Shown piece by piece: positions 10,482 to 20,016 of a stretch of 32,000 nucleotides of DNA (within the stretch, counting starts at the first letter, position 1; every line of letters begins with the position of its first letter). Location: contig NZ_CP097765.1 of the NCBI RefSeq assembly GCF_023585785.1, positions 600,001 to 632,000 of the forward strand, written 5' to 3'. Both the position numbers and the translations under genes were made by a program. The stretch is from Blochmannia endosymbiont of Camponotus modoc. Its GTDB lineage: Bacteria; Pseudomonadota; Gammaproteobacteria; Enterobacterales; Enterobacteriaceae. The notes beneath the pieces were generated by a model. The model was not told where the DNA came from and did no database searches. It saw only the letters and a program-made list of their open reading frames with translations.

Positions 10482-10922
10482 TTATCTTGCCATATTATTT
10501 TTTTGTTGTATTTCAAGTAAATTGCATACTTCTCTAAAGCTTTTAAGTTGTACATCAGACAAAAGGGAAAATATGCGATCTAAAATGATGTTATGTGTAT
10601 CTTCAGCAATACGTAATTTATCACGTCCTTTTTCTGTAATATAAACGTATTTTACTCTACGATCTGTCAGACTTTGTTGTCGACGTAACATTTCATCTTT
10701 TTCTAATGCATCAAGAACTGTTACAACGGTTCTTGATGAAAACCCCATGTAATTTTTAATGTCTGTTGCGCTGGTTTTTCCGGTAGTAATAAGATGCAAG
10801 ATTTTCATTTTAGACATTGAAAGACCTTCATTAATTAATTGGCCATTTATTTCCTTGCGTAAACGATGATAAATACGAGATAAGGATTCTACCATGTTTG
10901 AAATATCTGTTAATCTATTCAT
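10482..10922 (-). CDS. MarR/SlyA-family winged-helix transcriptional regulator
   Basis: 146 aa. The central segment ...MSKMKILHLITTGKTSATDIKNYMGFSSRTVVTVLDALEKDEMLRRQQSLTDRRVKYVYITEKGRDKL has the MarR layout: an HTH, then a wing carrying the DRR motif, then a helix. I do not recognise a specific ortholog. It occupies the interval where E. coli K-12 has dinD-yicG-ligB. Confidence 0.75.
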   Translation of the reverse strand: MNRLTDISNMVESLSRIYHRLRKEINGQLINEGLSMSKMKILHLITTGKTSATDIKNYMGFSSRTVVTVLDALEKDEMLRRQQSLTDRRVKYVYITEKGRDKLRIAEDTHNIILDRIFSLLSDVQLKSFREVCNLLEIQQKNNMAR

Positions 10923-11920
10923 AATTATTTGTCTCTATATTGAATCAATAACGATAATAAGACTGTATTTGGCAGTATCAGTTAATAATAGTCTAAAAAT
11001 AGTAATTATTATTTTTTGAAGTATTGTTTATTAAGAATAATAACTTTTCAGACAATTGTTTATATCTGATAATTAATTATTTTTTTTAATTAACTATTGC
11101 AGCGTATACCTCCTAATTTATTGTAATTTTACTAAATTAATATTTTGGTTTTATTAAAAAATAGCAGACATTATTAATTCAGAATATATATATTTTAATA
11201 TTTAATTTGTGTTGTTTTACTATTTATATTTTATCGGAGTTTTTTTAAATTTGAAATATGACTATCGGAAAAATAAAACTTCTTATAGTTTTGTTAAAAA
11301 ATAATTTTTTTATATTTTATGATTTATTTTTAATATTAAAATTCTATATATCTGCAAATAAACAGATCCAAATCAAAAATACAACAATTTTATTATAAAA
11401 TATAAAATAATATTTTATATTTTTATGAAAATAAAAATAAAAAATTATATATTTATATTAAAATAATATTTTTTGTTGAATCATATATTCTCGTATACAT
11501 TCACATTTATTTATAAAAAATAATAATATTAAAGGATATATATCAGTTAATTTATAGTAAAATATTAACTATATAAATTTATATAACACTTAAATAAAAC
11601 GGATTTGAGTACAAAAATTATATTAAAAACTTTTTATTAAAAATAATAATATTAAAACCTAATTTTTTAATAAATGAATCTACTTCATATATATGCATGT
11701 ATATAATAGTTATTGTTTATATATGCATATGTCTCTGTAGTTAAAGTTTAAGTGCATTAAATTTCAGTATTCAATATTACGTTTAATTAGATTAGTTGAT
11801 TAAATGAAACATTATTTGATAAGATTATAATATAATTAAGAATTGCAAAAATTATCAGATTATATGACCAATACAGATTTTAAATATGAAAAGATTTTAT
11901 AGGTGGGTACTCTGATTATA

Positions 11921-12802
11921 TCACTCAATATTTTGAGTTTGCTCACGTATCTGTTCAATAAGTATTTTTAAGGAAATTGCTAATTGAGTAATATAAGAAT
12001 TTATAGATTTAGAAGTTAATGTATTAGCTTCTCTATGTAGTTCTTGTATTACAAAATCTAGTTTCCTACCAACAGCTCCGTTCCCATCGAGAATACGATG
12101 CATCTCTTTGATATGAATAATTAGACGATCTACTTCTTCTGAAATATCAATTTTTTGAGCTACTATTAATAATTCTTGTTCCAATCGTATTGGGTCAGAA
12201 TAAATGCAAACATCTTTCATTTGTTCCAAGAGTGTTTTTCGTCTGCGCTCCAATATATTAGGGATATGTTGATGAATTTTGTTCACTTCAGCATACATTA
12301 GATGTAATCGTTCTATAATTTTATTTTTTAAAAAAATACCTTCTCTTTCTCTATCTTGTATCAAATTATGTAATGTTTCTTTAAAACATATTAATAATTC
12401 GGCATGAATATTATTCATATTATTTAAATTATTTTGTTTATACGTTATTACTCCTGGCCAAGATAAAATATCTATCGGATTAATTTCACCTTCATTAGTT
12501 AATGTTTTTACCCATTTTGCGTATAACACAAGATCATGCACCAATTGTTTATTAACAGTAAATGACTCTGTATTATTGTCGCAATTATTATTTATTTTGA
12601 TATGTAAAGTGCATTCTATCTTCCCCCTAATAATAGAATCTTTAATATTTTTACGAATTACCCATGACAAATTACACAGATATTTAGGTAAATCGATATG
12701 AATATCTAAATAACGTTGATTTAAAGAACAAATTTCCCAGATAACATTACCCCATGTATATTTCACTTCATGCCTTGAGAAAGCGGTCATGCTATGAATC
12801 AT
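11921..12802 (-). CDS. yicC: YicC-family protein (stress-induced, UPF0701)
   Basis: From ATG 12802 the product starts MIHSMTAFSRHE, aligning with E. coli YicC MIRSMTAYARRE. The end EQIREQTQNIE matches EQMREQIQNIE. AGGTGA lies 5 nt upstream of ATG 12802. The tracked start at 12811 is a GTG inside that SD. Confidence 0.9.
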   Translation of the reverse strand: MIHSMTAFSRHEVKYTWGNVIWEICSLNQRYLDIHIDLPKYLCNLSWVIRKNIKDSIIRGKIECTLHIKINNNCDNNTESFTVNKQLVHDLVLYAKWVKTLTNEGEINPIDILSWPGVITYKQNNLNNMNNIHAELLICFKETLHNLIQDREREGIFLKNKIIERLHLMYAEVNKIHQHIPNILERRRKTLLEQMKDVCIYSDPIRLEQELLIVAQKIDISEEVDRLIIHIKEMHRILDGNGAVGRKLDFVIQELHREANTLTSKSINSYITQLAISLKILIEQIREQTQNIE

Positions 12803-13544: not shown

Positions 13545-13994
13545 TTACATCGAATGCCCAAAACCATGTGACCCACGTTTGGTAGGTATAAATGATTTAA
13601 CTACAGAAAACTTAACTTGAATTATTGGCATAAAAACTAATTGTGCTATTCGTTTCCCAGGATATACAATATACTTTTTTGGCCCACGATTCCATAAAGA
13701 TACTATCAATTCTCCTTGATAATCTGAATCAATTAATCCCACCAAATTTCCTAAAACAATACCATATTTGTGTCCTAAACCTGATCGAGGCAAAATAACA
13801 CCTGCTATTTTTTTATCAGAAATATGTATCGCAATACCGGTAGAAATTAAATGAGTTTTTCCAGGATAAATAGTCAAAGGTTTATCCAAACAAGCTGATA
13901 AATCTAATCCAGCAGATCCTAACGTAGCGTATTTTGGCAAATAAAAATGCTTATAAATACGATTATTAATAATTTTAACATTAATTATTTTCAT
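13545..13994 (-). CDS. dut: dUTP diphosphatase
   Basis: From ATG 13994 the product starts [13 protein letters not shown] (E. coli MMKKIDVKILDPRV). Motifs [33 protein letters not shown] and RGSHGFGHS are present. The start overlaps the coaBC stop by 14 nt. The tracked start at 14015 would add 7 unaligned residues. Confidence 0.93.
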
Positions 13995-15189
13995 TATAAC
14001 GATTAATAATTTCATTAATAAGTTGTTGTGCTAACAATTTTTTTTTTCTTAAAGGCAATATAACACTTCCTTTATTCCAAAATAGATATAAAGCATTATT
14101 ATCACTATTAAATCCTTGGTTCATACGAGAAATATTATTAGCACAAATTAAATCTAAATGTTTACTAATACGTTTATCTTGAGCATATTTTTTTATATTA
14201 TTAGTTTCAGCGGCAAATCCAACGACATAAGGACGATTTTCAATTAACGACCCTACTTCCGCTACGATATCGGGGTTTTTAATCATAATTATTTTTAAAG
14301 TATTTTTATTCTTTTTAATCTTTTCAAGAGAAACATGACAAATACGATAATCTGATACTGCTGCACAACCGATAAAAATTTGTTGATCACTAATGTCTCT
14401 CATAACTGCTTCTTGCATGTCTAACGCGGAAATAACATTAATACGTTGCACTCGAATAGGAGTACGTAAATTTACTGGACCTGCAATTAATGTAACTTTT
14501 GCTCCTTTATCTGCAGCGGCTTGGGCGATAGCAAATCCCATTTTTCCTGAACTATAATTAGTGAAAAAACGAACGGGATCTAAGGCTTCGTGCGTCGGAC
14601 CGGCAGTAATCATGATATTAAGATGACTTAAAGAACTATCATGAGAAAAGTAATGTTTTACGTATTCAGCAAGTACTTTGGGATCCGTCATGCGTCCATA
14701 ACCAATATCATTACAAGCTTGACATCCATAATCTGGTCCCCATATTAAAACCCCTCTTTTTCGTAGAATATCTAAATTTGTTTGAGTTGCAATAGCTTTA
14801 TACATTTGTTGATTCATGGATGGAGCTACAGCAATAGGAGCTGTTGTAGCTAAACATAAACTACATAATAAATCATTAGCTAATCCCACAGATAATCTAG
14901 CTAATAAATTGGCTGTAGCCGGAGCAAGTAAAACTAAATCAGCCCATTTAGCTAACTTTATATGAGGCATTGTAGTTTCTATTTGAGGGGTAAGAAAATT
15001 GTCCAAAACTGGATGACATGATATTGTTTGCAAACTTAAGGGGGTAACGAATTTTTTTGCAGATTTTGTCATGATCACTCTTACTTCTGAACCTTGTTCT
15101 TTTAAACATCGTACAAGATCTATAGTTTTATATGCCGCGATACCACCGCTTACTCCTAATATGATATGTTTATTAATTAATCCCGTCAT
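13981..15189 (-). CDS. coaBC: Bifunctional phosphopantothenoylcysteine decarboxylase / phosphopantothenate-cysteine ligase
   Basis: From ATG 15189 the product starts [21 protein letters not shown] (E. coli [20 protein letters not shown]). Both halves are conserved: PSMNQQMY and [10 protein letters not shown] in Coa[11 protein letters not shown] and CAAVSDYR in CoaB. The tracked start at 15201 is a GTG 4 codons upstream. The coaBC-dut order matches E. coli dfp-dut. Confidence 0.95.
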
Positions 15190-15201
15190 ATTATATTTCA
15201 C

Positions 15202-15292
15202 ATGATATTGAAGATGATTTAATTTTATTTATACTAACAAAAACTAACAGTTTTTGTTAGTATAAATAAAATTAAATCATCTTCAATATCAT
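15202..15292. repeat. Perfect inverted repeat with 44-bp arms and a 3-nt spacer (91-nt palindromic element)
   Basis: I checked it base by base. Positions 15202-15245 are the exact reverse complement of 15249-15292, giving 44/44 pairs with loop AAC at 15246-15248. The element lies in the divergent coaBC / rpmB spacer and starts 13 nt upstream of coaBC ATG 15189. Confidence 0.97.
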
Positions 15293-15652
15293 TGAATTTC
15301 AGAAAATCTGCAATTACATTGTGCGCAGCATAAAAATCTTATATAATATACCTTAGCCCATTATATATAAAGTAAAAATATATGGGAACATATATAAATA
15401 ATAATAAAAACAAAAATTTAACAACTTAAATCTATTATATTTAGACATATTTGGTGCTATATGAATGTTTAAAATTGTTAATTTTCTTGCGTTTAATAGT
15501 GAAAAATAAAACAACAAATAACAATTATAATATTTTTGGAAATCTTATATTAGGTATTTTAAATAATGTCAAATCTCATAGATTAAAAATCGGAATAAAC
15601 AAAAAATTGTTTTTATTGTTTTGATTATAAATAATTATTCAAACAAAAATTA

Positions 15653-15663: not shown

Positions 15664-15894
15664 ATGGCGCGAGTGTGTCAAGTTACCGGAAAACGTCCTA
15701 TGAACGGAAACAAACGTTCTCACGCAATGAACGCAACGAAGCGTTGGTTTTCACCTAATATTCATTCTCATCGTTTCTGGGTAGCAAGTAAGAAACGCTT
15801 CGTTGCGTTACGATTATCTACTAAGGGGATAAAATTAATTGATAAGTTTGGAATTGAATATTTTTTCACAAAAATATATCCTAAAAATAAATAA
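15664..15894 (+). CDS. rpmB: 50S ribosomal protein L28
   Basis: 76 aa. [40 protein letters not shown] aligns with E. coli L28 [40 protein letters not shown]. Confidence 0.97.
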
Positions 15895-15914: not shown

Positions 15915-16082
15915 ATGGCTAAAGAAAAACGAGAAATAATCCGTTTATTTTCTTCTTCTAAGAATGGACATTTTTATAGTACCACAAAAAACAAACGTAT
16001 TGGCTCTGAAAAAATGACATTAAAAAAATTTGATCCGTTTGCACGAAAACATGTAATATATACAGAAAGTAAGAATAGTTAA
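15915..16082 (+). CDS. rpmG: 50S ribosomal protein L33 (55 aa, below the ORF-track cutoff)
   Basis: Hand translation gives [55 protein letters not shown]. This aligns with E. coli L33 [55 protein letters not shown]. It starts 20 nt after rpmB, matching the rpmB-rpmG operon. Confidence 0.93.
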
Positions 16083-16109
16083 ATAAAGAAAAGATGCAAA
16101 TTCAACGGC

Positions 16110-16165
16110 ATACTACATAAGCCCCACAGCTCAATATGCATTGAGCTGTGGGGCTTATGTAGTAT
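16110..16165. terminator. Long perfect hairpin between convergent rpmG and coaD (candidate bidirectional terminator / RNA 3'-end stabiliser)
   Basis: Positions 16110-16135 pair perfectly with 16140-16165: 26 bp, 11 of them G:C, with loop ATGC. The hairpin starts 28 nt after the rpmG stop and ends 137 nt from the coaD stop. No canonical U-tract follows on either strand. Confidence 0.55.
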
Positions 16166-16301
16166 AAATATCTAAAATACTATGCTACTAAGTCTACATT
16201 TAGCAGTTTATGTTCATATGTTTTTATATAGTGTCAACATAAAAAAATTAAGTCTACACGTATAATATAACTCTTCAAATTTTCGAGTTTTGATTTTTTA
16301 G

Positions 16302-18805: not shown

Positions 18806-19988
18806 ATAATATCCCAAAATAATCAGTTATTACATTCATAATGATTAATTTAATCATTTTACATGCATTTAACTATATATCAATATCGCTATGTTTTATA
18901 TAATATATTTTAATAGTCGATATTTATATAAATTTTAAAAAATAATTTATCTGAAAAATTATCTATGTTTCTGCTATTTTTAACAATTATGCTTATAGAG
19001 TATTTTTTTATTTTAAATTAAAAAATAATGAATTCTCATAAATATCCTTTAAAAATTAAACATTGTATTGTATACGATAAAACCATTAATTACTGATTTA
19101 ACATTTTTTGAATAATTTAAATAAATTGTTAATTATGACAATAATTAATGATTAGACAATACTTATAAAAACGATATTTATAACAAATAAATTATAAAAA
19201 CTATAAAATCTGATTAATTTTTATATAACTAAAAACTTAAATTAATCATCCAAACAAACACACATAATATAAGCATATTATTTTTTACATTAATAATTTA
19301 TATTAAAATTAATTATATTACAATATTCACAAATGTGAAAATCTTATAATTTTGTTGGTATAAATAAAATTTATTTATTCAAACTTATAAAAATATATAA
19401 AAATTTATTTTACAAATATATACATGCATCATGTATATAATTATTTTTAATATTAAATAATAATTTAGATGCACAACATAAATAATATTTTTAAAAATCA
19501 AATAATAAGATTAAATTGGAGTATGTACTGTATTCTTTTAGTTTTATCATAATTTATCTATTTCCACCGTAACGTAATGATAGACAACCGGACTACTCAT
19601 TCAGAATTAAATTATGTTAAAAACGATTTTTATTTCTGTAGCTTTAAATATTTTGAAGAATTTATTTTTTCTATGTTAAATATATTTACATTTCGATTTT
19701 AAATTATAAGAAATAATCTATATTAATATCATATAACTATGTATAATGAAATACATATTTCCAATATTGTTTACTGCATTATATTATACATAGATCTTTT
19801 CTGATGCAGTATAAAAGTATGATTACTACGTGTATAATATTTTTTAGTATTGCTGCATAATTACCAGTTACTATATTAATTTTTTTAGATATTATATATA
19901 AATTACGTGTAAAATAAATGTTAATTACTTTATCGGATTTGATTGCAAATTCATGTTATTATATTTCTAATTATATCTTATTATTTTG

Positions 19989-20016
19989 TTTATGCTGATA
20001 AAATTTTATCAGCATA
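19989..20016. repeat. 28-bp perfect palindrome (14-bp arms, no spacer)
   Basis: TTATGCTGATAAAA / TTTTATCAGCATAA; every position 19989-20002 pairs with 20016-20003. It sits in the 1.8-kb gene-free waaA / waaC spacer. Confidence 0.9.

Follow-up and report, generated by a model that had tools for sequence, protein, structure and literature searches.

A long perfect palindrome upstream of coaBC in a Blochmannia endosymbiont, probably grown in place and kept perfect by template switching

In a 32,000-nt stretch of the chromosome of Camponotus modoc's Blochmannia endosymbiont (NZ_CP097765.1, positions 600,001 to 632,000; hereafter the window), a perfect palindrome with 44-nt arms lies 12 nt upstream of the coaBC start codon, in the spacer between this gene and the divergently transcribed rpmB. 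The palindrome is real and chromosomal, and is not an artefact. The reading that we favour, with moderate confidence, is that it grew in place and has been kept perfect by RecA-independent template switching, without its perfection being a required function; the perfection of the arms is best read as the product of a mutation process. An older, imperfect quasi-palindrome, still found in other Blochmanniella lineages, would have been the starting point, with no insertion involved, and its stem would have lengthened stepwise, from 15 bp to 36 and then to 44 plus 4, as the polymerase briefly copied one arm off the other during replication and so erased or transferred a change. The half on the coaBC side, together with the 12-nt leader, would be constrained as the 5' region of coaBC, and copy-correction would drag the other half along. 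The element is most likely transcribed, with its promoter immediately upstream, and the mRNA of coaBC would then carry a very stable hairpin close to the 5' end. We infer the template-switch mechanism and the absence of a selected role from the pattern of change among sister genomes.

A scan of the window for inverted repeats and a direct reading of the sequence both confirmed what a preliminary description had noted, namely two arms complementary at 44 of 44 positions around an AAC loop (coordinates in Table 1). This is by a wide margin the longest perfect inverted repeat in the window. The preliminary description had guessed the chance of complementarity per position at about 0.3 and judged the run far beyond chance; the base composition of the window gives 0.30, and a run of 44 pairs then has a probability of about 1e-17 with all centres and loop sizes summed (about 1e-15 when the composition of the spacer is used instead), so that the judgement stands. 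The arms have approximately 18% G+C. Folded as RNA in the coaBC sense the element reaches -59.7 kcal/mol (z = -13.3), and folded as DNA -45.3 kcal/mol (z = -16.5); none of 200 shuffles matches this stability. Beyond a 1-nt bulge at 15201, four further pairs extend the stem (15197-15200 with 15293-15296), and the distal 12-mer TTCAATGATATT is the reverse complement of the proximal 13-mer AATATCATGTGAA less one base. The palindrome has no coding capacity and, in the window, no target-site duplication, as had been described. The assumption of strong instability at such a length fared less well: the experimental SbcCD lethality that we found concerns palindromes of 246-460 bp.

Comparison genomes were reached through CoaBC protein clusters and the contigs that encode their members. 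The CoaBC of the window is identical to URJ26203.1 and falls in one 90% cluster with those of Candidatus Blochmanniella pennsylvanica and B. chromaiodes. A series of 17 genomes published by Manthey et al. 2022, CP097749-CP097765, is the source of the URJ accessions (PMC9251289). A CoaBC scan of genome contigs gave a best match of 61% identity, and among metagenome contigs none was closer than 58%. At the nucleotide level, coaBC of the window is 99.75% identical to that of CP097758 (L069), 97.6% to CP097750 (L051), 96% to B. pennsylvanica (CP000016, L057) and B. chromaiodes (CP003903, L058), 91% to CP097764 (L056), 88-89% to the two genomes of the vicinus clade (L053 and L071), 88% to CP046534 (L072), 83% to CP097762 (L054) and 81.5% to a Logan contig (L070). 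Ordered by this identity, the window groups with L069, then with L051, then with the pair B. pennsylvanica and B. chromaiodes, followed by L056, the vicinus clade and L054.

The long perfect form follows this order. The 44-nt form also occurs in three other genomes of the 2022 series, among them L051, which carries a single arm mismatch, and it is anchored by sequence spanning both flanks in three genomes. Perfect arms of 36-37 nt are present at the same locus in CP000016 (Sanger, 2005), in CP003903 (2013) and in a Joint Genome Institute (JGI) metagenome contig. The preliminary description had proposed a comparison with sister genomes, and close relatives do hold perfect arms that change together. 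A significant hairpin in the 120-nt coaBC leader is confined to the clade of at least 96% coaBC identity, with RNA z-scores of -12 to -15; z is approximately 0 in L053, L071, L054 and L070. The vicinus clade has a homologous stretch of equal length whose halves are about 75% identical to the window arm and no longer pair. In L072 the homologous centre forms a stem of 15 perfect pairs, TTATACCATAAAAAT-CGATA-ATTTTTATGGTATAA (z = -3.3); L054 aligns only weakly, and L070 has nothing comparable. We rejected the idea of a conserved ancient perfect palindrome in L053 and L054, where self-complementarity is not significant. Across these genomes, then, the quasi-palindromic region is old, and its long perfect form is young and limited to one clade.

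In L056 the spacer measures 387 nt, compared with 474-478 nt elsewhere, and a clean deletion of approximately 87 nt has taken the centre and most of both arms. As L056 is nested among lineages possessing the region, a deletion is what its state represents; its coaBC is intact (402 aa). L056 has thus lost the palindrome and the vicinus clade has let it decay, while coaBC is undamaged in both; whatever the role of the palindrome, it is by this comparison dispensable. As a separate observation, the Logan contig SRR21069170_33645 (L055) ends 94 nt upstream of coaBC; we considered a break at the palindrome and rejected it, since the sequence matches L056, which has no palindrome.

The manner in which the arms change carries the case for template switching. 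In B. chromaiodes, an additional T in the distal arm is accompanied by an additional A at the mirror position of the proximal arm, and two independent assemblies agree on this. When eight genomes are aligned, both sides have changed at 8 of the 44 pairs, compared with 4.3 ± 1.4 in shuffles (5 of 500 reach 8), and the pairing register scores 0.103 for covariation, where slid registers score no more than 0.054. A one-sided G-U change occurs in a single cell of that alignment. The inner stem of L072 differs from that of the window by compensated differences on both sides. In L051 two changes stand uncompensated: the distal arm has an A in place of C, and a T beside the loop has become C. The window arm is a mosaic with respect to the vicinus clade: its outer 19 nt match the proximal half there at 14-15 of 19 positions and the distal half at 11 of 19, and its inner 25 nt match the distal half at 22-23 of 25 positions and the proximal half at 19 of 25. 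Such a mosaic implies that copying would have run in both directions, at different times.

Growth of the stem can be followed at its outer end. In B. pennsylvanica and B. chromaiodes, AATATCATGTGAA stands outside the distal arm as a direct repeat of the proximal flank; in CP000016 the two copies, at approximately 2896-2908 and 2981-2993, flank a 75-bp palindrome core. A 13-nt direct repeat of this kind arises in 58 of 20,000 shuffles. In the window, L069 and L051, the same site holds TTCAATGATATT, the inverted form, and the arms thereby pass from 36 to 44 nt, a gain of 8 (plus 4) pairs; the outer 8 nt of the distal arm pair with the proximal arm only in this subclade. The outer 12/13-nt segment thus has opposite orientations in the window subclade and in the B. 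pennsylvanica and B. chromaiodes pair, and either orientation may be the older one. In-place inversion of a short segment is a typical product of template switching, and the 13-nt repeat in B. pennsylvanica is better explained as the uninverted state of the outer-stem segment than as a target-site duplication.

The genetic background of the host agrees with such a mechanism. In Blochmannia recA was lost ancestrally, and in the Camponotus lineages mutS was lost as well (PMC4389277). The absence of recA makes homologous recombination between the arms unlikely, and a host without recA and without mismatch repair points to a replication-based, RecA-independent process. Template switching has been described to correct quasi-palindromes, to make multi-base compensated changes, to invert loops and to extend arms (PMC5941160, PMC8794818, PMC8604942, PMC13100816), and a survey has reported symmetric indels that preserve inverted repeats, and has found perfect repeats to be enriched close to where prokaryotic transcription begins and stops (PMC13155455). 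The palindrome conforms to this mechanism on every point that the comparison covered. Among the origins listed in the preliminary description, ongoing intrastrand correction is the one favoured by the paired indel, the arm extension, the chimeric arms and the compensated differences.

The loop is a different matter. Over 212 nt, the window and L069 differ in the loop only, which reads GTT in the window and AAC in L069 (coaBC sense), an exact reverse complement. The source genome series was assembled with a MinYS/Minia short-read de Bruijn pipeline, in which multiple graph paths are merged by coverage, and both loop orientations yield identical canonical k-mer sets at every k <= 45. We therefore withdrew a recent loop flip between the two genomes, as the difference may be an arbitrary graph path; a de Bruijn assembly at k <= 45 cannot orient the loop, and the difference is not used as evidence. 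More generally, a short-read de Bruijn assembly gives the loop of a perfect palindrome an arbitrary orientation, which is unsuitable as a character. It is a possibility that both orientations coexist in one host as a flip-flop polymorphism.

A second perfect palindrome, 0.9 kb away, sits between the convergent rpmG and coaD; its arms (16110-16135 and 16140-16165, 26 nt, loop ATGC) are richer in G+C. Between the window and L069 it shows two substitutions, each mirrored in the opposite arm. In L051 its loop is exactly reverse-complemented, from ATGC to GCAT, and here k >= 29 suffices to resolve the orientation. The arms are also perfect in B. chromaiodes and L056, with a different sequence. The second hairpin behaves as the first does, and paired-arm change is thus general. 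It is probably a bidirectional terminator-like structure, and neither of its sides carries a canonical U-tract. A sub-threshold Rfam match to GcvB (16022-16163, minus strand; 31.4 bits against a gathering threshold of 42, E = 9e-5) overlaps the 3' end of rpmG and this palindrome; the terminator-like stem most likely accounts for it, without a real GcvB.

Several points weigh against the favoured reading. Of the 74 columns in the core arms, 4 are variable within the five clade genomes, compared with 83 of the 379 columns elsewhere in the spacer (p = 0.0006 with columns as the unit; p = 0.055 with the arms taken as 37 pairs). Copy-correction without bias would not by itself make lineages diverge more slowly, so some purifying selection must act on at least one arm, and the hairpin itself could be its target. 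Within the distal half, the eight aligned genomes show no variation in a block of 15 nt, TTAATTTTATTTATA, which argues for a sequence-specific role, for example as a promoter element. Selection for pairing would likewise yield compensated changes, and the comparative pattern alone thus cannot separate mechanism from selection. Finally, loop inversion, the most direct signature of template switching, had to be set aside at this palindrome for assembly ambiguity. Nowhere in the spacer do the five clade genomes vary less than in the proximal arm and the 12-nt leader; the leader itself shows no variation among these five and almost none in the eight aligned genomes. The simplest reading of this constraint is that it belongs to the promoter or 5' region of coaBC, with correction coupling the two halves.

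A selected RNA hairpin in the 5' untranslated region (UTR) of coaBC, acting on mRNA stability or translation initiation or serving as an RNase III site, is possible, if on balance unlikely. It would account for the very stable fold in the coaBC sense, for arms that are more conserved than the spacer and for covariation above the controls. The semi-conserved -10 upstream is kept in L056, so the element is probably inside the transcript, and the stem ends 12 nt before an AUG that lacks a Shine-Dalgarno motif. L056 moreover carries another hairpin further upstream, at approximately 2893-2930 and 70-108 nt upstream of coaBC, with 17-bp arms (ATATATCTTAGCTGTTA/TAATAGTTAAGATATAT; leader z = -3.5); its two arm differences are G-U pairs in the coaBC sense, and C-A mismatches in the opposite sense. 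Against a selected hairpin, the palindrome is deleted in L056 and its fold has a z of about 0 in the vicinus clade, with coaBC intact; G-U intermediates, which selection at the RNA level would tolerate, are nearly absent; the upstream -10 is weak in the window (TGTAAT); and no known RNA family is matched. Rfam 15 gave no match at gathering thresholds; the sub-threshold matches of the palindrome, taken up to E <= 1, are to eukaryotic microRNA-precursor models only, as is expected of any long hairpin.

It is less likely still that the palindrome is a selected DNA element, whether a pair of face-to-face sigma-70 promoters that both fire through the centre, a cruciform or a site for a dimeric protein, that couples coaBC-dut and rpmBG to supercoiling in a genome poor in regulators. 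Sigma-70-like hexamers are present on both strands, at 9 of 12 matches (10 of 12 in L051, with a perfect TATAAT), and TATAnn together with the 15-nt block just upstream is kept in each of the eight aligned genomes. As the arms lengthen in the window subclade, GTGAAG becomes TTGAAG, and a regulator of the MarR/SlyA family is encoded 4.3 kb away (an intact 146-aa open reading frame (ORF), 10482-10922, minus strand). Promoter-like matches, however, are not enriched at the palindrome (8 found, 10.8 expected from shuffles), the -35 is not conserved, and L072 has TATACC, without the key final T. L056 lacks the whole internal motif, which fell within its deletion, and has an intact coaBC; the hexamers facing rpmB are a necessary consequence of the symmetry of the arms, and a better conserved rpmB-sense site lies outside the palindrome, at 15319-15347. 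No operator motif was identified, and a 91-bp dyad is far longer than the usual operators of transcription factors.

A related and equally doubtful view combines the two, with the palindrome as a selected structural switch, either a cruciform extruded by negative supercoiling or a 5'-UTR hairpin cleaved by RNase III, that tunes coaBC-dut and perhaps rpmBG in an endosymbiont left with hardly any transcription factors. In that case template switching would be the means by which selection keeps the palindrome perfect. Of the other roles named in the preliminary description, a barrier to antisense read-through is likewise possible and, like any regulatory role here, would be dispensable.

The preliminary description placed the element where radC stands in Escherichia coli, and listed among its possible origins a template-switch scar left by the deletion of that gene. 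The first part holds, as the free-living relative Izhakiella (locus L001) has yicR/radC between rpmB and coaBC, where it is absent here; a one-off deletion scar is nevertheless very improbable. The gene is absent from 11 of 11 Blochmannia lineages examined and the perfect palindrome occurs in one young clade only, the element records several successive events and not one, and the quasi-palindrome predates the perfect form. Searches for remnants of yicR and mutM in the two spacers found none (all E > 1).

An insertion of foreign DNA or of a mobile element resembling a miniature inverted-repeat transposable element (MITE) can practically be dismissed: the repeat of AATATCATGTGAA around the B. 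pennsylvanica core is superficially duplication-like and L056 lacks the palindrome, but the element is single-copy in the window and in every relative's locus compared, there is no phage match, plasmid matches are short, AT-rich and due to chance, and distant lineages hold, at the same length and place, a diverged homologue and not an empty site, which means that the region was inherited vertically. Gene order is known to be extremely stable in obligate endosymbionts of this kind (PMC4389277). Equally remote is the assembly or fold-back artefact that had been raised at the outset, with only one arm existing in the organism: the short-read pipeline did merge graph paths and cannot orient the loop, but independent assemblies from other technologies and groups (CP000016, CP003903 and the JGI contig) carry the palindrome, and the same pipeline resolved an arm mismatch in L051.

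Two other identities were tried and rejected. A role at the origin or terminus is contradicted by the predicted Blochmannia origin, which adjoins mnmG, and there is no GC-skew switch at 15.2 kb. An intrinsic terminator was not found here by a terminator scan; the tails GUGAAAUAUAAU and UGAAUUUCAGAA are not U-tracts, and the flanking genes are divergent.

Table 1. Palindrome, leader and candidate promoter features in the window.
Feature	Position	Strand	Sequence or remark	Basis
Distal arm (upstream in coaBC sense)	15249..15292		minus-strand reading: ATGATATTGAAGATGATTTAATTTTATTTATACTAACAAAAACT	direct reading and repeat scan
Loop, 3 nt	15246..15248		AAC on plus strand, GTT in coaBC sense	
Proximal arm	15202..15245		12 nt short of coaBC start codon	
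Distal half of 4-bp stem extension	15293..15296		TGAA on plus strand	folds
Proximal half of 4-bp stem extension	15197..15200		TTCA, plus bulged base 15201	folds
coaBC (phosphopantothenoylcysteine decarboxylase / phosphopantothenate-cysteine ligase)	13981..15189	-		NCBIfam TIGR00521, 481 bits
coaBC start codon (15189-15187) and 12-nt AU-rich leader	15187..15201	-	GTGAAATATAAT; Shine-Dalgarno motif absent	
Sigma-70-like hexamers in distal arm, toward coaBC	15259..15286	-	TTGAAG-N16-TATACT; predicted start near loop	9/12 matches
Mirror hexamers in proximal arm, toward rpmB	15208..15235	+		without independent support
Candidate coaBC -10 upstream of palindrome	15313..15318	-	TGTAAT; CATAAT or TATAAT in relatives	
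Promoter-like element toward rpmB	15319..15347	+	TTGTGC-N17-TATAAT; back to back with candidate coaBC -10	

The location in a divergent coaBC/rpmB spacer, given in the preliminary description, is upheld by the gene order: dut and coaBC on the minus strand, rpmB (15664-15894) and rpmG on the plus strand, followed by coaD and waaA. As a start codon, the GTG at 15199-15201 lacks conservation, since the database CoaBC proteins of the clade are all 402 aa long and begin at the ATG; in the vicinus-clade genomes the corresponding GTG is out of frame through an indel.

The palindrome probably sits, judging from the candidate signals around it, in the transcribed leader or promoter of coaBC. For the transcription start, we infer two candidates. 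The -10 at 15318-15313 is weak in the window, with G at position 2, and is kept in L056; if used, it would place the whole palindrome in the 5' UTR, approximately 10-15 nt from the 5' end. The hexamers of the distal arm are predicted, if used, to start transcription near the loop, so that one arm only would be transcribed. The conserved block upstream of the palindrome was considered as the coaBC promoter and rejected, since it better fits the rpmB-sense promoter-like element at 15319-15347, and this reassignment weakens the argument about the coaBC transcript start. That element recurs at the homologous position in 9 of 11 Blochmanniella genomes, lies approximately 316 nt upstream of the rpmB ATG and accounts for the one block of strong conservation in mid-spacer. 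Perhaps it was once the promoter of yicR and now serves rpmBG.

Other observations concern the surroundings. The 219-nt spacer between rpmG and coaD (16083-16301) has no detectable remnant of mutM, which the Izhakiella locus has there; mutM is published as absent from Camponotus-associated Blochmannia, and the spacer of the window agrees. Two stretches of the window, 11000-12000 and 19000-20000, have approximately 16% G+C and many imperfect AT-rich inverted repeats, with no ORF of at least 60 aa, and are probably eroded former genes. In L056 (CP097764, 1472-2004), coaD is split into two ORFs through a 1-nt deletion in a poly(A) tract (A9-C-AAG to a longer A run), so that the genome without the palindrome also has a frameshifted coaD. 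Slippage rescue at poly(A) tracts is known in endosymbionts, and the split may mark a true pseudogene or a gene rescued by slippage, or else an error of assembly in the homopolymer.

If the palindrome was shaped by template switching, as we favour, perfect hairpins can arise and persist without selection having to await matched point mutations. Compensated changes in a hairpin do not by themselves prove a functional RNA structure. The sister genomes preserve the stages of the process: a decayed quasi-palindrome, perfect stems of 15, 36 and 44 bp, and one deletion. Should the hairpin affect the expression of coaBC-dut, it would offer a rare instance of cis-regulation where most regulators have been lost from the genome.

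Among known systems, Rho-independent terminators are likewise intergenic stem-loops, a description that the hairpin at 16110-16165 fits better; the coaBC palindrome differs from them in having no G+C-rich stem and no U-tract on either strand, and in lying upstream of a start codon. Stabiliser hairpins of 5' UTRs, such as that of the ompA leader, have short stems within a few nucleotides of the 5' end; here, with the upstream promoter in use, a very stable stem would lie approximately 10-15 nt from the 5' end, and sister lineages dispense with it. Repetitive extragenic palindromic (REP) sequences, enterobacterial repetitive intergenic consensus (ERIC) sequences and MITEs are palindromic, non-coding and intergenic as well; the element described here differs in its single copy, in the lack of a duplication and in its vertical homology. 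A likeness is also offered by the small hairpin-associated inversions of chloroplast non-coding DNA, reportedly described by Kelchner and Wendel in 1996, which show the same reverse-complemented loops in an AT-rich, reduced and polyploid genome; in our case that character is usable only in the second hairpin.

The nearest precedent is the correction of quasi-palindromes in Proteobacteria (the Ripley 1982 model; Lavi et al. 2018, PMC5941160), with the same RecA-independent change from imperfect to perfect, the same homogenisation of arms and a perfection that is conserved beyond the neutral expectation. The cases of Lavi et al. mostly have arms of about 5-15 bp and come from E. coli and its relatives, while the arms here reach 44 nt (48 with one bulge), the element is extremely AT-rich, the host is an obligate endosymbiont of carpenter ants deficient in recA and mutS, and the succession from 15 to 36 to 44 is readable. 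Monttinen and Loytynoja 2022 (PMC8794818) describe the same paired indel, multi-base compensated differences and stem extension from the flank, as well as loop inversion, which is secure here only in the neighbouring hairpin; their cases concern ribosomal RNA and other RNA genes of known function, and ours is an mRNA leader or promoter hairpin whose function is putative. Taken together, these likenesses suggest that the coaBC palindrome is a natural example of a known process, unusually long and clean, and not a new type of element.

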